Of a stretch of DNA of 18,861 nt, positions 2,449 to 18,683 are shown piece by piece. Below the pieces are notes generated by a model, which saw only the letters and a program-made list of their open reading frames with translations, ran no database searches and was not told the origin of the DNA. The DNA is from Nitrospirota bacterium. GTDB taxonomy: Bacteria > UBA9089 > CG2-30-40-21 > SBAY01. Made by a program: the position numbers and the translations under genes. How positions within the stretch are numbered: position 1 is the first letter of the stretch; each line of letters begins with the position of its first letter. The stretch spans positions 1-18,861 of the forward strand of contig JBDRHR010000165.1 of assembly GCA_043816605.1 (NCBI GenBank). Direction: 5' to 3'.

Positions 2449-4320
2449 TTGGTAAATGCCTTAAAATCCCTTTCAGGTACTTATGCCTTACAGTTATTTG
2501 AAGATGACCATGAACAAAACCAAAAGACTATAGCTATCGGCGTAACACTTCACTATTTGTTGCAAAGTAAGGAAAGAGAGGGAAACTTCTTATTGATTCC
2601 GGTATATTGTCATCCCGATATTTTTGATGATGCTGTTAATTTGTGCGACTTCTTACTTATTAGTGTTACACAGCAAAGCATTAAAATTACATGTATTGAC
2701 TCAGCCATTGAAGCAGAATTATCCTTTCGGTCTTCAATCCTTGAAAAGACTAACGAACGATTTTTGAAAACTGAAAAACTCTTCCATGATAAATATTTTT
2801 CAAGTCAGCAGGAAGAATCCGAAGGAAATATTGGGGCACCACTTGAGCGATCCCGATTAGTTATGTTGCTCAGATATTATCTTTCAAAAGCAGTGCGGTA
2901 TAACTTAATTGATAAAGAGGGGTTCGGTAAATTTAGTGAACTACTTAGCAAGGTGGAAGCCGGGAAAATCCAGCTGAATATATTGAAAAGAGCATATTTG
3001 ATAAGTCCAGGTGAAGATAAATATAAAATTGAACCGTCCTATCAGGATGAAATAAAAGTGACGATTCTTGGCAGGCATGTATTATCGGAACCTCCACAAC
3101 CGCTTGATTATGGAAAGCAAATCATTACAGGCTCTTATGAAGAATTACCGCTCATAACAGAAGAACAAAATAGAGAGGAAGAAGACAAAGAAATACTTGC
3201 TGAACAACCGTCTGATATTGGCGGTATCAAAACGGATGAGGTTGATGGTGCAGACATACCTTCATATCCAGAGTCTGTAGAAATCATATTAGGCAAGTCT
3301 GTAACTGATGAGAATGTTGTTTGGAAGCCCTCTGTAAAAGGAAGCCCTCATGTCTTTATTCTTGGAATACCCGGGCAAGGCAAGTCAGTTACCATTAATA
3401 CATTGCTTGTTGAGTTGCAGCGTAATGGAATTGGCACTTTGACCTTTGATTTTCACGGACAATTTAGCGATACAAGGAATGCCTTTAGAAAATCTTGTAT
3501 GCCCACAATTTGGAATGCAGCGGAAGGATTACCGTTTTCGCCGTTTGAAGCTGATTTAGTAAATGAAATAGGGCAACAGTCATGGAAAACGCAAAGTTTT
3601 GCATTAGCAGATATATTTGCGTATGTCTGCGAGCTTGGTGATATTCAAAAAGACGGTGTGTTCAGGGCAATTTCCGCTTGCTACAAAGATACCAAAAATC
3701 GTGGCGATAATACATTCCCGACAATCAACGACCTGGAAAAAAAGATTGAGCGATTAGAAAATAAGAAAGAAATAAGAAATGTGTTAGCCAAATGCAGACC
3801 GCTTTTAGAAATGAATATATTCAACCCACAGGTATTTGAGAAGAACTGGGATATCCTCGAAAGTACTAAAAAAGGCTTGGTCATTAATATAAAAGAAATT
3901 GGCTCAGAAACGGTTCAATTAGCTATCAGTGCCTTTGTTTTAAGAAAAGTATATAAAGAAATATTAAAATGGGAAGAGTCCTATGTCTTGAAATTGGCAA
4001 TTGTTTTAGACGAAGCTCATCGTTTAGCCAAGGATAAAACCTTGCCTTTAATAATGCAGGAAGCAAGGAAGTTTGGAGTTTTGGTTATTGTTGCAAGCCA
4101 AAATATCAATCATTTTCATGAAAATGTACTCGGCAATGCGGGAACTAAGATACTTTTTAGAACAAACAATCCAGATTCAAAAAAAGTTAGTAAGATGGTT
4201 CAAATGCGTAGTAGTAGCAATGCTCAAAGTATTATTGAGCAACTTAGAACAGGACAGGCAGTTGTCCAGACTCCTGACATAAGCTATGCAGCAAAAACAA
4301 TGATGAGAAAGTTTGATTGA
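2449..4320 (+). CDS. HerA/FtsK-superfamily P-loop ATPase (DUF87-like) with an unassigned N-terminal region of about 270 aa
   Basis: Walker A follows a HerA-like lead-in (ILGKSVTDENVVWKPSVKGSPHVFILGIPGQGKS). Walker B is LAIVLDEAHRL, followed by ARKFGVLVIVASQN and ILFRTNN, the pattern typical of HerA-like ASCE ATPases. The track start is TTG with aggaaag 11-17 nt upstream. The first in-frame ATG is about 138 codons in. Confidence 0.6.
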   Translation: MVNALKSLSGTYALQLFEDDHEQNQKTIAIGVTLHYLLQSKEREGNFLLIPVYCHPDIFDDAVNLCDFLLISVTQQSIKITCIDSAIEAELSFRSSILEKTNERFLKTEKLFHDKYFSSQQEESEGNIGAPLERSRLVMLLRYYLSKAVRYNLIDKEGFGKFSELLSKVEAGKIQLNILKRAYLISPGEDKYKIEPSYQDEIKVTILGRHVLSEPPQPLDYGKQIITGSYEELPLITEEQNREEEDKEILAEQPSDIGGIKTDEVDGADIPSYPESVEIILGKSVTDENVVWKPSVKGSPHVFILGIPGQGKSVTINTLLVELQRNGIGTLTFDFHGQFSDTRNAFRKSCMPTIWNAAEGLPFSPFEADLVNEIGQQSWKTQSFALADIFAYVCELGDIQKDGVFRAISACYKDTKNRGDNTFPTINDLEKKIERLENKKEIRNVLAKCRPLLEMNIFNPQVFEKNWDILESTKKGLVINIKEIGSETVQLAISAFVLRKVYKEILKWEESYVLKLAIVLDEAHRLAKDKTLPLIMQEARKFGVLVIVASQNINHFHENVLGNAGTKILFRTNNPDSKKVSKMVQMRSSSNAQSIIEQLRTGQAVVQTPDISYAAKTMMRKFD

Positions 4321-4764: not shown

Positions 4765-5223
4765 ATGAAAAAATCTCGAATTTATGCTGATACTTCTGTT
4801 TTTGGAGGATGTTTTGATGATGAATTTTCAAAAGAGAGCAAAGCACTTTTTGAAGATATAAAGAGTGGCAAATTTATACTTGTAATCTCTACGACTACTT
4901 TGCGTGAAATTGACAATGCACCAGATTGTGTCCAAAATATTCTATCGGAATTGTCACCAGAAATGGTAGAAATAATAGTTTATTCGGAAGAAATTGGAAA
5001 TCTTCGAGATGCTTATTTGAAAGCTAAAGTTGTCGGTCATGCAAGCAAATTTGATGCAGAACATATTGCTGTAGCTTCTGTAGCAGAAGTTGATTTTGTT
5101 GTTAGCTGGAATTTCAAGCACATTGTTCACTATGAAAAAATAAGTGGTTATCAAGCGGTGAATTTGCTAAATGGCTATAAACCCATTCATATTTATTCTC
5201 CAAAAGAGGTGGTTAAACAATGA
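4765..5223 (+). CDS. PIN-domain protein (VapC-like putative ribonuclease)
   Basis: PIN signature positions are present: RIYADTSVF (first Asp), LREID, DAEHIAVASVA (DAxhhAxA-like), then VVSWNFKH. The start has a GGAAGG RBS 6 nt upstream. Confidence 0.5.
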   Translation: MKKSRIYADTSVFGGCFDDEFSKESKALFEDIKSGKFILVISTTTLREIDNAPDCVQNILSELSPEMVEIIVYSEEIGNLRDAYLKAKVVGHASKFDAEHIAVASVAEVDFVVSWNFKHIVHYEKISGYQAVNLLNGYKPIHIYSPKEVVKQ

Positions 5224-5411
5224 AAAAACACAAAAAATTTGATTGTGTTCAGATGAAATGGGATATTCAACAAAAAATTGCAAAAGAGGCTGTTGGTATT
5301 TCTGACAAGGAATTCAACAGAATTCAAATGGGAAAAATTACTAAGAATCCCATTTTGGGACCATTTCTCAAGAAAACAGAATCAGAAAACAGAGTCAGTG
5401 GTAGATATTAA
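5220..5411 (+). CDS. Small HTH (XRE-like) protein overlapping the PIN gene stop (ATGA); possible antitoxin or regulator
   Basis: The 4-nt ATGA overlap indicates translational coupling. IAKEAVGISDKEFNRIQMGKI resembles an XRE-type helix-turn-helix. It is short and unverified. Confidence 0.35.
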   Translation: MKKHKKFDCVQMKWDIQQKIAKEAVGISDKEFNRIQMGKITKNPILGPFLKKTESENRVSGRY

Positions 5412-5578
5412 AAGTTAAATAGTTCCAAGAGAGTTTGCTGAAATAAGATAGTTTAGCAAGCCAGAAGAAAAGAAAAAACAGCAAAACAAAGCAATTGTCT
5501 AACCAGAAAAATGCACCTGACAAGGAGCAGGTTATTTTTATCGTTAGCCAACCAAATGTAGATAAATAGGGACAGCGA

Positions 5579-5857
5579 CGAATGGCACTGACTTAAGAGT
5601 TTACGAGCCAGAAATTCCACCCCCTTACCCCCGCCAGCGGGGGATAATTTACCCCACCCTGTCCCAGAACAACTGGTATCGGCCCTTACCCCCGCCAGCG
5701 GGGGATAATTTACCCCACCCTGTCCCAGAACAACTGGTATCGGCCCTTACCCCCGCCAGCGGGGGATAATTCCACAAGATATTGTAGTAATTACAAGGTG
5801 AAACTACTACTTATCAACCTGATTTTGTGTTCATATTTCTTAAGTCAGTGCCATTCG
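5579..5857. mobile_element. MITE-like nonautonomous element with perfect 20-bp terminal inverted repeats enclosing 2.5 tandem 61-bp units
   Basis: cgaatggcactgacttaaga (5579-5598) is the exact reverse complement of tcttaagtcagtgccattcg (5838-5857). The 61-bp units start at 5622, 5683 and 5744 (partial). Each unit carries the GC palindrome cccccgccagcggggg. No ORF is present. Confidence 0.5.
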
Positions 5858-5899
5858 GGACACAATACTAATTAATGGTCAATGCAAGGAGAAAAAGTT

Positions 5900-7654
5900 A
5901 TGGAAACACCAAATCATAAGTCATCAACAAGGCGCACCTCTGATTTTATACGAGATATTATTGAACAAGACTTAAAAACAAATAAAACTAATGGTCGGGT
6001 TGTAACCCGATTTCCGCCTGAACCAAATGGCTATTTACATATTGGACACGCCAAATCCATTTGCCTTAACTTTGGTATTGCCGAAGAAAATAAAGTAGGC
6101 TTGCCTGGTAGAGGTGTTTGCCACCTGCGGTTTGATGATACCAACCCCATCAAGGAAGAACAGGAATACATTGACGCCATTAAGAAAGACATCGCCTGGC
6201 TTGGCTTTGATTGGGGTGAACACGAATATTACGCATCTGACTATTTTGAAAAACTATACGAGTATGCGGTGGCGTTAATCGAAAATGGTAAGGCGTATGT
6301 TTGTGATTTGAACACGGAGGAAATCAGAGAATACCGCGGCACCTTGACTGAACCCGGTAAGGACAGTCCCTATCGTAACCGTTCTATTGAAGAGAACTTG
6401 GACTTGTTTGAGCGTATACGGGCAGGAGAATTTGAGGATGGTTCCCGTGTCCTTCGAGCAAAAATTGATATGTCCTCCCCAAATTTAAATATGCGCGACC
6501 CGGTTATGTATCGTATCCTCCGGGCAACCCATCACAGAACAGGTGACAAATGGTGTATTTATCCAATGTATGACTGGGCTCACGGCATCGAAGATTCCAT
6601 TGAAGGTATCACCCATTCGATTTGCACATTAGAATTTGAAGACCACCGACCACTGTATGATTATTTTCTGAACGAATTGAATGTCCACCATCCTAAGCAA
6701 ATTGAATTTGCTCGCCTTAATCTCACTTATACGGTAATGAGTAAGCGAAAACTTCTGGAATTGGTCAAACAAGGCTATGTAACCAGCTGGGATGACCCAC
6801 GCATGCCTACAATATCAGGCTTACGCAGGCGTGGTTACACAAAAGAGGCAATCCGAGATTTTTGTGAACGAATTGGAGTGGCAAAAAGTAATAGTGTGGT
6901 GGATATCGCCTTGCTTGAGCATTGTCTGCGTGAGGATTTAAATCTACGAGCACCGCGGGTGATGGCTGTATTGCGTCCACTTCGAGTGGTCATAGACAAT
7001 TATTCAGAGAATCAGGTGGAAGAGTTGGATGCTCAAAATAATCCTGAGGATGCCGGTATGGGATTGCGGAAAATTCCTTTTTCCCGTATCCTGTATATTG
7101 AGCAAGATGATTTCCAGGAGAACCCTTCGAAAAAGTTTTTCCGATTATCTCCAGGACAGGAGGTACGATTAAAACATGCGTATTATATCAAATGTGTGGA
7201 TATCGTTAAGGATGAAAAAACCGGTGAGGTGATTGAATTGCATTGCACCTATGACCCACAAACACGAGGTGGTTGGTCTGATGATGGACGCAAGGTTTTG
7301 GGGACTTTACATTGGGTTTCTGCGGCTCACTCACTAAAAACTGAGGTACGCTTGTATGATTATCTCTTCACAAAACCAAATCCAGAGGAGGACGATGATT
7401 TCAAGGCTAACTTGAATACCAATTCGTTAGTAAAATTAACTTCATGTTTAGTTGAGCCAAGTTTGAAATCCGAAATCCAAAATCTAAAATCCAAAATTCA
7501 AAATCCAAAAGGTGCTCTACCAGGAAATCGATACCAGTTTTTAAGGCATGGTTATTTCTGTGTTGACCCTGATTCTACTAAAGAATTATTAGTATTTAAT
7601 CGCACAGTATCTTTGCATGATTCGTGGAAAAAAATTGAGAAATCGCAAAAATAG
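5900..7654 (+). CDS. glnS: Glutamine--tRNA ligase (GlnRS)
   Basis: Class I HIGH motif ([17 protein letters not shown]) and KMSKS motif (TVMSKRK) are present. The protein is near-collinear with E. coli GlnRS as I recall it ([46 protein letters not shown]). The ORF track starts at 5882, but the ATG at 5900 follows AAGGAGA by 8 nt and gives METPNH..., matching the GlnRS N-terminus. Confidence 0.9.
7465..7510 (+). repeat. A-rich imperfect octamer repeat (aaatccaa-like, about 5 units) in-frame inside glnS
   Basis: gaaatccgaaatccaaaatctaaaatccaaaattcaaaatccaaaa encodes [15 protein letters not shown]. This appears to be an insertion relative to the E. coli GlnRS C-terminus. Confidence 0.6.
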
Positions 7655-7668
7655 GTAAATGGTCTGAA

Positions 7669-8949
7669 TCACAAAGCCCATTCTAACGATTCTACCCACA
7701 CATCATCACCTTTTGTAATTTCCTTTTGGTCGGGCAAAATTTGAATTAAGCAATTAGCTGAAATCATAGAATTAAGTATGCCGGAACCTTGTGCCCCGGT
7801 AGTGGTAACTATCCACCCATCTTCTCCATAAGAAAGTATGCCCCTGAGCCATTCTAATCGACCTTGTTTTTTAGTCATTTGGAAGTTAGTCTTCGCCTTA
7901 AACAGCACAGTTTTATCATACTCTTTACAACCAGCCATTTTCAAAAGGGCACATCGAACAAATTTAATAAAGCTAACTATCACAGAAACAGGATTACCCG
8001 GTAACCCAAAGAAATAACAACGACCGATTTTACCGAATGAAAGTGGTTTGCCGGGTTTTATATTCACCTGCCAGAATTCTACATTGCCAAGGGAATCTAC
8101 CACTTCTCTGACTAAATCGTACTTACCTACTGAAATACCACCAGAGGTAATGACAACATCTGCCCGCTCAGATGCCTCTCTAAATTTTGTCTTGAGCATT
8201 TCCCTATCATCTTTGACGATACCCAAATCAATTATTTCTACGCCAAGAGAGGTTAATAACCCGGTTAAACTATAACGATTACTATCGTAAATTTTTTCTG
8301 GTGTCCGTTTTTCTCCAATAGAAATAAGTTCATCTCCGGTAGAGATAATGGCAACATTTAATTGGCGATAAACATTTACCGTCCCATACCCCATAGAGGC
8401 TAACAGACCCATTTCCTGAGGTCTAATTCGTGTGCCTGTTTGAAGTATCAATTCACCTTTTTTAATACTTTCCCCTTGAAGTCGAACATTAGCACCTTTT
8501 TTAATCCACCCCCTTACCCCCGCCAGTGGGGGACAGCCATCTTGAAATCGAATATTAGCGTCAAATTTAGTCGCTTGGGGTGAAATACTTACCCAATCAC
8601 CATCTTGTAATGTTACCTCTTGCATAACCACTGTATCTGCCCCTTTAGGCATAGGTGCACCGGTCATAATTCTTAGGGCTTCTCCGGTTTTAAGTTCCTT
8701 ATCAAAGGATTTACCTGCAGGCAATTCCCCAATTACCTGCAATCTTACTTCCTCTATTTCACTAATATCTTCATATTGGACAGCATAGCCATCCATAGCT
8801 GAGTTATTACAAGGTGGGACATCAAAAGAGGCGATTACATCCGTGGATAAAATGCGATTCAAGGAGGATATTACCTTGATTTCCTCCGTTTCTTTAACCG
8901 GAACGATACCATCTAATATTTTTTGTTTTGCATCTTCAAAGGAAATCAA
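7669..8949 (-). CDS. moeA: Molybdopterin molybdenumtransferase MoeA / gephyrin-like
   Basis: SAMDGYAV, VITSGGISVGKYDLV and GLPGNPVS are MoeA signature segments. The start is TTG with AGGAAGG 5 nt upstream. The gene is convergent with glnS, 14 nt apart. Confidence 0.85.
   Translation of the reverse strand: MISFEDAKQKILDGIVPVKETEEIKVISSLNRILSTDVIASFDVPPCNNSAMDGYAVQYEDISEIEEVRLQVIGELPAGKSFDKELKTGEALRIMTGAPMPKGADTVVMQEVTLQDGDWVSISPQATKFDANIRFQDGCPPLAGVRGWIKKGANVRLQGESIKKGELILQTGTRIRPQEMGLLASMGYGTVNVYRQLNVAIISTGDELISIGEKRTPEKIYDSNRYSLTGLLTSLGVEIIDLGIVKDDREMLKTKFREASERADVVITSGGISVGKYDLVREVVDSLGNVEFWQVNIKPGKPLSFGKIGRCYFFGLPGNPVSVIVSFIKFVRCALLKMAGCKEYDKTVLFKAKTNFQMTKKQGRLEWLRGILSYGEDGWIVTTTGAQGSGILNSMISANCLIQILPDQKEITKGDDVWVESLEWAL
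8475..8562. repeat. Intragenic insertion within moeA: a 44-bp GC-rich palindromic element flanked by 22-bp imperfect direct repeats (18/22 identical)
   Basis: The inserted 8497-8540 contains tccacccccttacccccgccagtggggga, which matches the 61-bp unit of the 5579-5857 element. The flanking direct repeats are cttgaagtcgaacattagcacc (8475-8496) and cttgaaatcgaatattagcgtc (8541-8562). The total length of 66 bp keeps the moeA frame. Confidence 0.6.
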
Positions 8950-8961
8950 TTTACCTTCCTT

Positions 8962-9030
8962 TTACAGGTATCAGGTGTCAGGTATCAGGTAAGATTTCTG
9001 CCTTCTAAGCCCTAAACCCTGAACCCTTAC
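8962..9030. repeat. Intergenic palindromic element of the GTNTCAG-heptamer family
   Basis: caggtatcaggtgtcaggtatcaggtaag ... ccctgaacccttac. The right core ctgaacccttac is the reverse complement of the gtaagNNttcag core seen at 15363, 15826 and 17192. It overlaps the SPFH stop codon at 9027-9029. Confidence 0.45.
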
Positions 9031-9794
9031 TTAATTTCTTTGTCAGTCCCAATTAATTTCGAAAAAGCTTGCATGAAATCTATTGGTATCGGAAAGACAA
9101 CCGTAGTATTTTTTTCAGTGCCTATCTCGGTTAAGGTTTGTAAATATCTCAGTTGGATAGCAGTTGGTACCTTACCTATTATTGCCGCCGCCTGAGATAA
9201 TTTATCTGATGCTTGTAATTCACCTTCTGCATGGATAATTTTAGCCCGCTTTTCCCGTTCTGCCTCTGCCTGTTTTGCCATTGCCCGCTTCATCGTCTCC
9301 GGCAACTCAACATCCTTTACCTCAACGACACTTACCTTTACTCCCCATGGTTCTGTCTGAGAATCAATTATTTGTTGTAACTGCTGATTTATCTTCTCTC
9401 TCTGGACTAACAACTCATCTAATTCCGATTGCCCAAGAACACTTCTTAAAGTTGTCTGAGCAATTTGAGAAGTAGCATAGGTATAATTAGTAATTTTAGT
9501 TACGGCATCTGACGGATTAATTACCCGGAAATAACATACCGCATTTACCCGAATGGTAACATTATCCTTTGTAATTACCTCTTGTGGTGGAATATCCATA
9601 GTGATAGTTCTCATGTCAATCTTATTCCATTGTTCGATATTAAAGGGAATAATATAGATAATCCCGGGTCCCCGAGCATTAACTATTCTCCCTAATCTAA
9701 ACACCACTGCCCGCTCATATTCCCGCAAAATTTTAATCCCACTAACTAAAAGCACAACACCTAAAATCAACAACCCTGACAAAAACTCTGACAT
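9027..9794 (-). CDS. SPFH / band-7 (stomatin-prohibitin-HflC/K-like) membrane protein
   Basis: An N-terminal TM segment is followed by an SPFH core ([16 protein letters not shown]...) and a coiled-coil, Ala/Glu-rich C-terminal region ([20 protein letters not shown]). The ATG at 9794 follows AAGGAGG. Confidence 0.8.
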
Positions 9795-15362: not shown

Positions 15363-15837
15363 GTAAGCGTTCAGGTGTCAGCTGTCAGCTATCAATTTTA
15401 ATAGAATTCCCCCTTATTAAACTTATCTTTACCCACAAATATTGCTGGACAATTTAAGGTAAACGATTAGAGAAATTATCATTAAATATTTTGTCCTGTG
15501 CAGTTGGAATTTGCTACACAGATTTATAATAATTTCACCCCTTCGGGGTTAGGATTTGTTTATACCGATTTTCTACAATCATATCACCCCTTCGGGGTTA
15601 GGATTTATTTATTTTGACTTTCTTAAATCCCGAAGGGATGACATTATTGTAGCACAATCATAAATAAACCATAATCAAATCCCGAAGGGATGACATTATT
15701 GTAAATGCAGAGGCAGAAAAATTGTCCAGCAAAAGATGTGGGACATGCTAAGATTATTAAAGGGGGTTAGGGGGTTGTTCCTCTCTCGATTTTTCTGGTT
15801 TTGGCTGAATGCTGATACCTGACGGCTGAACGCTTAC
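15363..15837. repeat. Composite palindromic noncoding element. Its 30-bp imperfect TIRs share the core gtaagcgttcag plus GTNTCAG heptamers. Internally it carries 2+2 copies of a 27-29-bp stem-loop repeat in opposite orientations.
   Basis: Left end gtaagcgttcaggtgtcagctgtcagct (15363-). Right end gctgatacctgacggctgaacgcttac (-15837), which is its reverse complement with heptamer substitutions. Internal repeats are tcaccccttcggggttaggattt (15536, 15586) and aaatcccgaagggatgacattattgta (15626-15652, 15677-15703). Confidence 0.5.
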
Positions 15838-15844
15838 TCCTTCC

Positions 15845-17182
15845 TTACCTAACATTCCTTCGATAATTGTTCAACTGTTCTGAAAAGTATTTTTCACCTT
15901 CCTTTGAGTAATATTCACTTTCTTCAAAAATATTTTTTATCGGATATTGCACCAGCAAACGCGGTCTATACCTTTTAATCAATTCCCAACGACTTTTTTC
16001 TTCATCCAGATTTAATTTCCATCTATCATCCCGATGTAACATCAAGCCAAATTTCAGATCTGCATTCACAAGTCTTTTATACTCTTCAATAAAATATTCA
16101 AGATTTGCCTTTATGGGAGGATAGGTTTCACAGACGACATAATCAATTTCAGGATGTTGACTCAATAATTCAATATCCATGCCCCGTTGTCTTCCCCATG
16201 CACCCCACCTATGTATTTCAGGAACTGTAAAGTCTTTATCTATTATTTTTTCATAGGGCAAAGTCCAATGATGTAGTCCAATATAAACAGTCCCATACCA
16301 TTGCGGATTATCTTTATTGACTTCATTTACTACCCCGGCAATTCTCCCAATCCAATTATTTATAAAAAGCTCGCATATAAAATCAAACCAATGTTTCCAG
16401 ACACCTTCGGGCTTAGACAAATCTACAAACCTCTGCCCGGGCGTAATTTCAACAGGCACATTATAACCAGGACAATATTCCGTTAACTCAGAGACCATAC
16501 TTGGGTCATGCACAGGGAATTTATCAACTAATTTACCATTATGTCTAACATTATGTTTCATGGCATATTCTTGCCATTTTTTTAAAATAGCCGGGCTATA
16601 TGTGGGATTACTCCAATAATCATATCTTTTTTCATTTCTCCACTCATCAAGATAAGTCAATACATCTTCATCAAAGAAATAGCCATTCAATATCCCTTTA
16701 AACCTTTGTAAATACCTCGTTTTATATTCCTGGAGAAACCAGGTTACGGCATCTTCATTCAAAACATCAAAAAGAGGTCTATCGTTAAGTGTGGCAGGAA
16801 TAATACTACCGTCTTTTTGCATAACACATGCCTGGTATTCGGGTTTTATCTTACCAAATGCTTGTATCCTCTCAATAATCTTGAAAGAAGATGCCCATAA
16901 ATGTATTCCATAGTTTTGGGCTACTTTGGCTATATAATAATATGCATTCAGGTCATTTTCATTATAATATAACGATGAAAGCGCAACGCCGCAATCTTTA
17001 TATTTAATCCTTGAAAAGATTTTTTCAGCCTCTTCCCCACTGCTTATAGCACCGAACTTGCTTTCCCCATAAGTTTCAACGACAACAAAAAGCAAATAGC
17101 CCTCCGGCAGACTTGTTTTAGCCCGGCATTCTATTGGGAACAATAAATATACCATTATTGAAATCAAGAATAATTTATACAT
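15845..17182 (-). CDS. Secreted or periplasmic protein of unknown function (predicted signal peptide), possibly a carbohydrate-active enzyme
   Basis: N-terminal MYKLFLISIMVYLLFPIECRA has the n/h/c layout of a signal peptide. The protein is 445 aa with no motif I can assign confidently. The assignment to the glycan locus is by context only. Confidence 0.55.
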   Translation of the reverse strand: MYKLFLISIMVYLLFPIECRAKTSLPEGYLLFVVVETYGESKFGAISSGEEAEKIFSRIKYKDCGVALSSLYYNENDLNAYYYIAKVAQNYGIHLWASSFKIIERIQAFGKIKPEYQACVMQKDGSIIPATLNDRPLFDVLNEDAVTWFLQEYKTRYLQRFKGILNGYFFDEDVLTYLDEWRNEKRYDYWSNPTYSPAILKKWQEYAMKHNVRHNGKLVDKFPVHDPSMVSELTEYCPGYNVPVEITPGQRFVDLSKPEGVWKHWFDFICELFINNWIGRIAGVVNEVNKDNPQWYGTVYIGLHHWTLPYEKIIDKDFTVPEIHRWGAWGRQRGMDIELLSQHPEIDYVVCETYPPIKANLEYFIEEYKRLVNADLKFGLMLHRDDRWKLNLDEEKSRWELIKRYRPRLLVQYPIKNIFEESEYYSKEGEKYFSEQLNNYRRNVR

Positions 17183-17191
17183 GTTTTTCTT

Positions 17192-17369
17192 GTAAGCATT
17201 CAGTAATCAGGTATCAGCAGTCAGCCAAAGACCAGTAAAATCAAGGATGGAGAATGAAAAATGGAGGATGGAGGAGAAAAGGATAAGATGTCATACATCC
17301 TTCATTCTCCATTCTTCATCCTTCATCCTATAAAAACTGATACCTGACACCTGATTACTGAAACCTTAC
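17192..17369. repeat. Palindrome of about 178 bp. Its TIRs are of the GTNTCAG-heptamer family, and its internal 33-bp imperfect arms are ggatggagaatgaa... / ...ttcattctccattc.
   Basis: gtaagcattcagtaatcaggtatcagcagtcagcc (17192-17226) versus the reverse complement of ctgatacctgacacctgattactgaaaccttac (17337-17369), which is gtaaggtttcagtaatcaggtgtcaggtatcag. The right TIR overlaps the stop codon of the Wzy-like gene (17355-17357). Confidence 0.5.
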
Positions 17370-18683
17370 TTTTCCTTTCAATTGGAATTGGGCTTGATTG
17401 TATAGTGAAAAATAAATACCGACAAGACCAAAGTATGTCCAAACCACAAAGGCACAATTTAGCCCTGTCCCGAAACACATAATAACCAGAGCAACAACAT
17501 AATTTGCCAATATTCTGCCTATTGTATACATCTGGACATCCCTCATTGTTTTAAACCGGTTAGACATATACTTCAACCTCTTAAAAAGAGAAAGCCAGAG
17601 CAGTGAAAAGGCAATAACTCCCAATATTCCCAACTCTCCCCAGATAACCGGCCAAAAGGTATCAATACTGCCCATGTGATATACCAGGGTTCTATAATAT
17701 TCCGACCAATCATCATATCTTGGAGATTCAAATATTGTCGATGCCAGACCGCCAAACATCCCAACTCCTGCTCCAAATATCGGATTTTCTCGTAGCAGTC
17801 TAAAAGACTCACAATATGTAAAGGTTCTATAATATACTTCAGGGTCATAGTCATCTGAACCAAATAAACTCATGGCTCCAATGCCGAGAATAATTAATAA
17901 GCCCGGCACGAGCAGTCTTTTTTTTATTAAAACCGACATCACCAATAATCCTATCCATGCCTGTCTTGAAAAGGTTAAAAATATTAGACATAAAGTCGCC
18001 AACAAACTTAAATTTTTAAAAATCCCACTTTTTGTAGTTGTATAGATAAGAAATAACCCTAATAGTGCATACATACCGAGATAATTAGTACTGCCATATC
18101 CGGTAAGGGACTGAACTCTGTAAAATCCTAATCTGTTATTTTCCTCAGAACCAACTAAATAGCCCACACCAATCCCGCCATAAAGGGCAAGGATTTCTGC
18201 AATTATGCCAACAATCGCAAGGAATATGACTATTTTTTTGACCCAGCCTATCATTGCCAAAAATTCATCTCTTGACCAATATAGAGCAGTAAAGACATAA
18301 ATAACTATAATATTTTTTACAATATCATAAATCCCGAAAAAACCCTGTAGAATCGGCACATGGTTGACTATGATTGAAATACCGCTCACAGCAACAAGAG
18401 AAAGTAAATATTTAGTAAATGGAATATCTTTTAGATTCAAAGAATAATGTGCTGATTTGAGTAAAATAAACCATAAAACCAAGACAATAGAAACAATAAA
18501 AGCAAATTCATCTAAATATGTGAACAATTTTAATATTATAACTTCCTTAGATTCTTCCGGGTTTTCAAAAAAGATAGTTGGAAACTTTTGAAATGGAAGA
18601 ACTAATATGACTAAAAACAATAGTTTATGAAACCCACATGAGCCATTAGTCTCACAAAGAGGTATGAAAATTAAGTTGATCAT
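17355..18683 (-). CDS. O-antigen ligase / Wzy-like polytopic membrane protein (Wzy_C family)
   Basis: The protein has ten or more predicted TM helices. FSRQAWIGLLV matches the SRxAW hallmark of O-antigen ligase-like domains. GAGVGMFGG is a GxGxG-type motif near the large loop. No RBS is seen upstream of the ATG at 18683. Confidence 0.55.
   Translation of the reverse strand: MINLIFIPLCETNGSCGFHKLLFLVILVLPFQKFPTIFFENPEESKEVIILKLFTYLDEFAFIVSIVLVLWFILLKSAHYSLNLKDIPFTKYLLSLVAVSGISIIVNHVPILQGFFGIYDIVKNIIVIYVFTALYWSRDEFLAMIGWVKKIVIFLAIVGIIAEILALYGGIGVGYLVGSEENNRLGFYRVQSLTGYGSTNYLGMYALLGLFLIYTTTKSGIFKNLSLLATLCLIFLTFSRQAWIGLLVMSVLIKKRLLVPGLLIILGIGAMSLFGSDDYDPEVYYRTFTYCESFRLLRENPIFGAGVGMFGGLASTIFESPRYDDWSEYYRTLVYHMGSIDTFWPVIWGELGILGVIAFSLLWLSLFKRLKYMSNRFKTMRDVQMYTIGRILANYVVALVIMCFGTGLNCAFVVWTYFGLVGIYFSLYNQAQFQLKGKVRFQ

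Follow-up and report, generated by a model that had tools for sequence, protein, structure and literature searches.

In the 18,861-nt contig JBDRHR010000165.1 of a Nitrospirota bacterium (assembly GCA_043816605.1; this whole stretch of DNA is referred to below as the window), the gene moeA contains 66 extra bases that add 22 codons, keep the reading frame and introduce no stop. These bases include a 31-nt hairpin element of a family dispersed across bacterial phyla, and comparison with homologous genes clearly indicates that moeA acquired the element in this Nitrospirota lineage after its split from the nearest sequenced relatives. We consider it somewhat probable (~55%) that the hairpin element and a duplicated piece of its target were inserted in frame, by entry at a break or by template switching, with a nuclease of the DUF559 family as the likely partner, and that the gene tolerates the insertion. 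A first-pass annotation of the window had described the block as a frame-preserving insertion at 8475-8562, with two 22-nt repeats identical at 18 of 22 positions on either side of a 44-nt insert, and these coordinates and sequences, the four differences and the preserved frame are exactly as it gave them.

Read along the coding strand, the block is ...KF-DANIRFQ-DGCPPLAGVRGWIKK-GANVRLQ-GES... (Table 1). The four differences between the 22-nt copies are all transitions, and the same four transitions, each of which changes an amino acid, separate copy 1 from the single copy present in the orthologues. The 44-nt insert includes CCCCCGCCAGTGGGGGA, and the element within it, which reads TCCACCCCCTTACCCCCGCCAGYGGGGGAYA, is flanked on the plus strand by the filler sequences TTTTTTAA and GCCAT; the folding energy of its hairpin as single-stranded DNA is -6.2 kcal/mol. 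Direct repeats with at least 18 of 22 matches at a spacing of 23-120 nt are present in the window only at this block and in tandem arrays, first-order Markov simulations yield 0.13 such repeats per window, and against a cross-locus null the moeA flank repeat has p ~0.003. The palindrome common to the moeA insert and the intergenic region at 5579-5857, also pointed out in the first-pass annotation, has four matches in the window (5628, 5689, 5750 and 8517; 0.01 expected from shuffles). The shared stretch is actually 29 nt, over which the moeA copy is identical to 5616-5644 at 29/29 or 28/29 positions. The core of the earlier proposal, in-frame insertion of a small repeat with a flanking duplication, stands, with a mobile unit of 31 rather than 44 nt; the remaining 13 nt would be filler or belong to a longer duplication. 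The 5579-5857 region, proposed to be an element resembling a miniature inverted-repeat transposable element (MITE), does hold the same 31-nt unit, but as a separate composite bounded by terminal inverted repeats that merely contains copies of the unit; units 2 and 3 of its array lack the first 6 nt of the element foot.

Table 1. Positions in the window of moeA, the parts of its insertion and the related repeats
Feature	Position	Strand	Description and basis
moeA (molybdopterin molybdotransferase)	7669..8949	minus	Host gene, 426 aa; Pfam domains and structure matches
Native 13-mer CACCTTTTTTAAT	8454..8466	+	Gene strand ATTAAAAAAGGTG, encodes I-K-K-G; in all 3 orthologues as GATATTAAAAAAGGTG
Codon AGT	8467..8469	minus	Ser161, at the column of E. 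coli D142; Asp in 64/64 other homologues
Direct repeat copy 2 (gene 3′ side)	8475..8496	minus	Plus strand CTTGAAGTCGAACATTAGCACC; gene strand GGTGCTAATGTTCGACTTCAAG, GANVRLQ; ancestral-like, native position
Junction 13-mer CACCTTTTTTAAT	8493..8505	+	End of copy 2, filler and base 1 of the element; identical to 8454-8466 at a distance of 39 nt
Sequence between the repeats, 44 nt	8497..8540	minus	Gene strand ATGGC, 31-nt element, TTAAAAAA; encodes DGCPPLAGVRGWIKK; absent from L001, L002, L005 and all 64 homologues
31-nt element proper, TCCACCCCCTTACCCCCGCCAGTGGGGGACA	8505..8535	+	C-rich 'foot', TTA linker, 6-bp hairpin; consensus of 64 unique contexts ends exactly there
Direct repeat copy 1 (gene 5′ side)	8541..8562	minus	Plus strand CTTGAAATCGAATATTAGCGTC; gene strand GACGCTAATATTCGATTTCAAG, DANIRFQ; diverged copy
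MITE-like composite, 279 bp, intergenic	5579..5857		Encloses the array; perfect 20-bp inverted repeat (CGAATGGCACTGACTTAAGA); inverted-repeat search
Full intergenic copy of the 31-nt element	5616..5646	+	Sequence repeat search
Tandem array, period 61 nt, 2.4 units	5622..5768	+	Hairpin part plus 36 nt in each unit; 61/61 identical

The product of the interrupted gene is assigned to the MoeA/gephyrin E-domain family by its Pfam domains (MoeA_N, MoCF_biosynth and MoeA_C, with E values of 1e-46, 1.5e-34 and 4.5e-16, respectively) and by structural similarity, as the E. coli MoeA structures 2NQR and 1FC5 align with it at E 9e-86. It is 100% identical to a protein from an NCBI metagenome-assembled genome (MAG) labelled 'Nitrospirota bacterium', and the corresponding protein cluster has one member, from one contig. 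In a 65-sequence alignment, 64 of the 64 homologues have no residues in the columns occupied by residues 131-149 of the window protein, and none of the 16 closest homologues (85-47% identity) has the 22-residue block. In the closest orthologues (L001, L002 and L005), which are 85-86% identical at the nucleotide level and share the Band_7 gene upstream, the site is empty and the 22-mer occurs once, as the first-pass annotation had predicted for related strains, and in L005 this 22-mer is identical to the window copy at 8475-8496. The duplicated heptapeptide that orthologues would carry were the block ancestral was also looked for, and was found in 0 of the 64. A phmmer search of 1.84 billion representatives with the 30-aa insert region returned only unrelated Cys-rich and repeat proteins.

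The site of insertion directly precedes, and partly duplicates, the conserved N-x-R-x-x-G-E-D motif (R137 and D142 in E. coli). It is copy 2 of the repeat that lines up with the N-x-R motif conserved in every homologue and in E. coli MoeA. Residues N154, R156, G159 and E160 of the motif are retained in the window protein and position 161 is Ser; the E. coli structure 2NQR is, as is visible in the alignment, that of a D142N mutant. An AlphaFold2 model generated with the 65 sequences (mean predicted local distance difference test score, pLDDT, 90; predicted template modelling score 0.85) places copy 2 in the native position and predicts that the extra residues form an excursion. Values of pLDDT <50 are confined to residues 132-145 (NIRFQDGCPPLAGV), and copy 1 falls mainly in this low-confidence loop. 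The dN/dS ratios of the window moeA relative to the three orthologues are 0.17-0.20, with values of 0.17-0.23 among the orthologues themselves, and its 16 private substitutions, compared with 11-28 in the orthologues, are not a raised number. Given these ratios and the model, the gene looks functional and appears to remain under purifying selection, with the 22 extra residues looped out as a probably disordered excursion. This supports the tolerance that had been proposed for a 22-residue loop, although a site that duplicates a conserved motif is no innocuous loop and the Asp present in all 64 homologues is lost here. Translational bypass of the insert was considered and dropped, as the insert is open and in frame and plain translation suffices. 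A scan of 5400-9100 for promoters and terminators gave only chance-level results.

To define the element outside the window, one genome per GTDB species was scanned with CTTACCCCCGCCAGNGGGGGA, and metagenomes with a 28-mer. The exact core is present in 38 genome contigs, all but one labelled as MAGs, and in 36 metagenome contigs, giving 74 loci. The carriers include Bacteroidota of several families, Syntrophia/Deltaproteobacteria including Smithella, Planctomycetota including Brocadia, Ignavibacteria, Oscillatoria and Desantisbacteria, so that the named genome matches cover at least six phyla. Binning error was dropped as an explanation for this distribution, with several of the carrying contigs 0.24-1.6 Mb long. 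The exact form is rare, with 1-5 exact copies per MAG. Viral contigs scanned with the 28-mer had no matches; Rfam 15 gave no match at gathering score for the whole window and only chance-level matches at E<10 for 5500-5900; and the titles and abstracts retrieved with the DNA and peptide strings of the element contained nothing that appeared relevant, the papers being one on Klebsiella CRISPR and several on mitochondrial genomes. When the 64 unique contexts are aligned on the motif, their flanks are unrelated and conservation ends sharply at the borders of a 31-nt unit, T-CCACCCC-CTTACCCCCGCCAGCGGGGGA-Y-A. Variants in the same loci have a changed linker (TTA, TG, TAA and others) or have both arms of the stem changed together, for example CCCCCTCCGGAGGGGG, and such paired changes argue for the importance of the hairpin. 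The unit can be read without a stop in five of its six frames; the frame used in moeA encodes CPPLAGVRGW, and that used in a hypF gene and in a histidine kinase gene, described below, encodes SPAGGGKGV. A composite peptide of these five frames, compared with 5.8 billion proteins, gave only one candidate.

Larger arrangements of the element also occur. Inverted doublets with a 15-nt spacer (GATTCCTTGCACATG/C), similar in form to the REPINs discussed below, are present in L047 (1836-1906), L070, L072 and L075, including several contigs of one metagenome. In Syntrophia/Smithella (L010, L023, L027, L031, L033, L034 and L067), the element lies within a ~150-nt repeat conserved on both sides, with the layout ...GGAGGTGGAC...ATATCCACCCC[core]CAYTAC...GACTGCAA..., which is multi-copy in one MAG and frequently located at contig ends.

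A second gene provides a close parallel to moeA. In the hypF of another organism (L049, 8513-10858 on the plus strand; block at 9650-9760), which encodes a HypF of 781 aa, the gene strand reads 31-nt copy, G, 31-nt element, 31-nt copy, so that 63 nt have been inserted in frame. The protein reads ...ETIIRRSRGYA-VSPAGGGKGVE-IIIRRARGYAPLP..., an insert of 21 residues relative to the solved HypF structure 3VTH, with the second copy aligned with the native motif. Between the two target copies there are six differences, among them synonymous Arg codons (AGA/CGT and CGC/CGT). Comparison of the two genes thus indicates the same layout in both, with the element between two copies of its target. The element is also present at one and the same site, the turn before the DNGxGIP box, in two histidine kinases from Roseivirgaceae (L014 and L022), with no duplication detected; the flanks of these two genes are 68% identical and their elements match at 30 of 31 positions.

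Among the element copies as a whole, most have no flanking repeat, and in the rest such repeats are from 6 to 31 nt long. There is nonetheless a clear excess relative to a cross-locus null: a flank repeat with p<0.004 is present in 5 of 63 contexts, compared with ~0.2 expected, and repeats that abut the element and score at least 6 are present in 7 of 64 contexts, compared with ~1 expected. Examples of abutting repeats are those in L069 (12-14 nt), L026 and L065 (8 nt), L018 (7 nt) and L016 (8 nt). None of 42 contexts of variant copies has a flank duplication.

To find genes associated with the element, the 682 ORFs of 90 aa or more that lie no further than 3 kb from the element at the 74 loci were clustered. 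The top recurrent neighbour, found at 13 loci, encodes a ~140-aa protein of the DUF559 family (PF04480, Vsr-like endonuclease; E 1e-30 to 1e-34), and a DUF559 gene is flanked by the element in approximately a fifth of the loci. Inverted copies of the element form the borders of the DUF559 ORF at L007, L024, L039, L048, L052, L021 and L037. At these loci, the upstream copy reads TRTCCCCCGCTGGCGGGGGTAAGGGGGTGGA, with the start codon 3-25 nt further on, and supplies a Shine-Dalgarno-like TAAGGGGGTGGA, and the downstream copy, CCACCCCCTnnCCCCCGCCAGCGGGGGA, encodes the last residues of the DUF559 protein (...HPLTPASGG*). An element-encoded tail or head is present in 44 of the 120 nearest representatives of DUF559 clusters (from 3233 matches at E<1e-10), and 30 more of these 120 end in ..TTP, ..HPL and similar residues that resemble, at the protein level only, a stop codon inside the foot. 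In L080 (9830-10440) and L082 (9800-10450), the DUF559 ORF is bounded by direct repeats of ~55 nt, each with an element, a pattern that resembles what recombination at the element, leading to integration, or a long duplication of the target would leave. The titles and abstracts of the DUF559 literature that were retrieved reveal no apparent link to hairpin repeats.

These observations can be accommodated by a mechanism that has no transposase with a fixed stagger. The element would enter staggered breaks or gaps, or a template switch at a stalled replication fork would copy it in, and such entry would leave target duplications of variable length, from none to ~31 nt. In essential genes, the survivors would be in-frame events that keep one intact copy of the interrupted motif; the redundant half-copies could then drift, with the element itself kept uniform by gene conversion, re-insertion or constraint at the DNA level. 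From its association with the element we infer a role for the DUF559 nuclease, which would be the most likely partner and might nick at or near the hairpin. More tentatively, the hairpin and DUF559 may together form a selfish system comparable to the REPtrons described below, with a PD-(D/E)XK nickase in place of a Y1 transposase, that moves horizontally across phyla, has a repeat kept uniform by gene conversion and enters essential genes in frame with duplications of up to ~30 bp that preserve a copy of the motif.

Several observations weigh against entry with a duplicated target and a DUF559 partner. Approximately 85% of the element copies have no flanking repeat, so insertion need not produce a duplication, and in moeA 5 and 8 nt of unexplained filler separate the repeats from the element. 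The moeA junctions are supported by one assembly only. Identical DUF559 proteins are found at one fixed chromosomal place across samples, so that these cassettes are not visibly jumping, and a Pfam scan of the window ORFs found no DUF559 gene, leaving the moeA copy solitary; the link is therefore one of association, and mobilization by the nuclease would be a further step. Finally, the elements in moeA, hypF and the kinase pair are identical to the consensus at 29-31 of 31 positions, and the duplicated target copies differ by 18-27%. With the element pristine and the copies so diverged, a duplication that was identical at birth needs an extra assumption. For copies that started out identical and drifted neutrally, ~6 changes per element would be expected, and the probability of the observed numbers, from a rough Poisson estimate, is ~0.02 for moeA and 0.003 for hypF. 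It would seem that the element must have been homogenized or re-inserted, or be constrained at the DNA level, or that the target copies were not identical at birth.

The footprint in moeA is itself ambiguous, as the alignments are compatible with a duplication of 22 nt, of 30 nt at 73% identity, or of 39 nt by slippage. The repeats on which a 22-bp flanking duplication had been proposed are real, but the footprint is not a clean target duplication of that length. If the copies are taken as 22 nt, 13 nt of filler go unexplained. In the 30-nt reading, the first copy (8541-8570) is CTAAATTTGACGCTAATATTCGATTTCAAG, followed by the filler ATGGC and the 31-nt element, and the second copy (8475-8504) is TTAAAAAAGGTGCTAATGTTCGACTTCAAG, which gives the total of 66 nt with 8 mismatches in 30. 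The exact 13/13 match between sequences 39 nt apart, together with the GAT codon, which is ancestral and was retained in the upstream copy next to the element where the native copy has AGT, fits a separate slippage duplication as well as, or better than, insertion with a duplicated target and adds to the points against the latter.

On this evidence, two or three separate local events are a possible origin of the block, although we hold this to be doubtful. A 39-nt segment (13 codons, GANVRLQGEDIKK) would have been duplicated by slippage at GGTG microhomologies, the element, which makes 33 nt together with GGC, inserted in the upstream copy between GAT and ATT, and 6 nt (GGGAAG, between AAG repeats) deleted, or one multi-step template switch would have produced the same result. 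This accounts exactly for the junction AAAAAA/GGTGCTAAT and for the identity of 8493-8505 with 8454-8466, covers more of the bases, places the ancestral GAT in the upstream copy and AGT in the downstream copy, and accords with the lack of a flank repeat at most copies elsewhere. The 61-nt array, and tandem duplications that contain the element in L076 and L035, indicate that hairpin-associated slippage is real here, and they count in its favour. It requires, however, that three rare events fell in the same 40 nt of a gene of 1.3 kb, it makes the direct contact between the hypF copies and the element a coincidence if the events were independent, and it leaves GGC without explanation. The A-rich 9 nt could also have arrived with the element, as a T-run precedes TCCACC on the 5′ side in many copies.

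With insertion by breakage or template switching still preferred, it is improbable that the element is an ordinary repetitive extragenic palindromic (REP) sequence, or a REP doublet forming a hairpin (REPIN), mobilized by a REP-associated tyrosine transposase (RAYT; a Y1 HUH transposase) encoded elsewhere, with DUF559 a mere frequent neighbour or target. The element does resemble REPs as a short, GC-rich, dispersed hairpin that clusters with other hairpin repeats and occurs both singly and as inverted doublets (L047, L070, L072, L075, L044 and L030), and for RAYT subclass 2.4, which is common in Bacteroidetes and Cyanobacteria, insertion of REPs into coding sequences has been reported (PMC6006769). 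But in the consensus from the 64 contexts the hairpin is bordered by TCCACCCCCTTA on one side and by YA opposite, with no GT[AG]G head; the 682 neighbouring ORFs include no recurrent Y1 transposase, DUF559 being the sole strong recurrent neighbour; the number of exact copies per MAG looks low; and REPs are lineage-specific whereas this element is near-identical across phyla.

Very little credence is given to an ectopic insertion of the integrase type, by a Cas1-Cas2 or casposase-like enzyme, in which two staggered attacks ~30 bp apart would insert ~32 nt of DNA and duplicate the target as in the acquisition of CRISPR spacers. The sizes fit (31 and 31+1 nt in hypF, 30 and 31+5 nt in the 30-nt reading of moeA, and an array period of 61 nt), and the hairpin resembles type I-E repeats such as that of E. 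coli. Against this, an identical sequence has been inserted every time, in different phyla, most copies have no duplication and no arrays were seen among the 74 loci. The 'spacers' do not differ within the 61-nt array and a Pfam scan detected no cas genes in the window; together with the solitary copies elsewhere, this was also the ground for rejecting a CRISPR array. That only one assembly carries the block might suggest an ancestral feature or an assembly artefact, but this is hardly credible given 64 of 64 homologues without it (the ground on which ancestry was dropped), among them three at 85% identity with conserved synteny, the independent parallel in hypF, and an in-frame, stop-free block with copies that differ at four sites, which is not expected from an assembler that collapses or duplicates reads.

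The window has other features that may relate to genome defence and repeat biology. An ORF with a SMODS nucleotidyltransferase domain (965-1828; PF18144, E 6e-26) is followed by one for a SLATT_4 effector with two transmembrane segments (1840-2337), by appearance a defence pair similar to cyclic oligonucleotide-based antiphage signalling systems, and downstream are a HerA/FtsK-like ATPase (2449-4320) and an ORF with a weak PIN-domain match (4765-5223). A repeat-rich intergenic region at 15409-15778 has 47-nt imperfect inverted termini and two copies each of the hairpin repeats CACCCCTTCGGGGTTAGGATTT and AAATCCCGAAGGGATGACATTATTGTA; GGGGGTTAGGGGG, at 15762-15774, resembles the foot of the element. 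Heptamer-type repeats (CTGATAC/CTGACAC/CAGTAAT...) are present in the spacers at 8962-8988, 15363-15394, 15800-15837, 17192-17229 and 17337-17371. The pair at 15800-15837 and 17192-17229, which are 87% complementary, brackets an ORF of 445 aa (15845-17182) with no Pfam match, and similar heptamer arrays adjoin the hairpin element in other phyla (L035, L056, L069, L070, L074 and L076).

Nature seldom tests how much added peptide an enzyme can tolerate; tiny palindromes within essential genes are such tests, and in moeA the added residues lie beside an active-site motif. The layout of target copy, element and target copy in moeA and hypF is a concrete footprint from which to approach the chemistry of insertion, and the tie between a defined 31-nt hairpin and DUF559, a very large family of unknown function (at least 3233 relatives of one member), offers a testable substrate for the nuclease. 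A repeat that is near-invariant across phyla is explained neither by vertical evolution of REPs nor by classical transposition.

Among known systems, Rickettsia palindromic elements (RPEs) are palindromic sequences of ~100-150 bp, confined to Rickettsia, that are inserted in frame in conserved genes and tolerated as extra surface peptide. The moeA element shares with them its palindromic nature and its in-frame position in a conserved gene, and differs in being 31 nt long and distributed across phyla; we know of no associated nuclease gene, and of no flanking duplication of an active-site motif, for RPEs. The small dispersed repeats (SDRs) of heterocystous cyanobacteria (Elhai et al. 2008, Genome Res 18:1484) are mobile repeats of 21-27 nt that insert precisely, including into genes. 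SDR5 is located inside HIP1, as cited in PMC4390886. By description only, these and the 31-nt element are alike as very small mobile repeats, and their taxonomic ranges differ. To our knowledge, SDRs have not been linked to DUF559 or to long duplications. MITEs, such as Correia and Nezha, and the 5579-5857 composite are likewise small, non-coding and dispersed in or beside genes, but MITEs are bounded by a pair of terminal inverted repeats, duplicate a short target of fixed length and have a parent insertion sequence; the 31-nt unit, a single hairpin with a foot and with variable or, mostly, no duplication, is not a member of this class. Unprocessed 5′ flaps and slippage at hairpins, as in yeast rad27 and bacterial polA 5′-exonuclease mutators, generate microhomology-bounded tandem duplications of tens of nucleotides, favoured where the DNA forms hairpins. 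The GGTG-bounded 39-nt reading and the 61-nt array fit this signature, but such slippage alone would not bring in a foreign sequence of 31 nt. REP/REPIN-RAYT systems ('REPtrons') are similar in having ~30-nt dispersed hairpins, single or in inverted doublets, that flank a small gene of nuclease type and spread within genomes. They differ in that the partner here is DUF559 (PD-(D/E)XK, Vsr-like) rather than a Y1 HUH transposase and the hairpin has no GTAG head, and in that the 31-nt element is near-identical across phyla, with copies in conserved genes accompanied by long target duplications.

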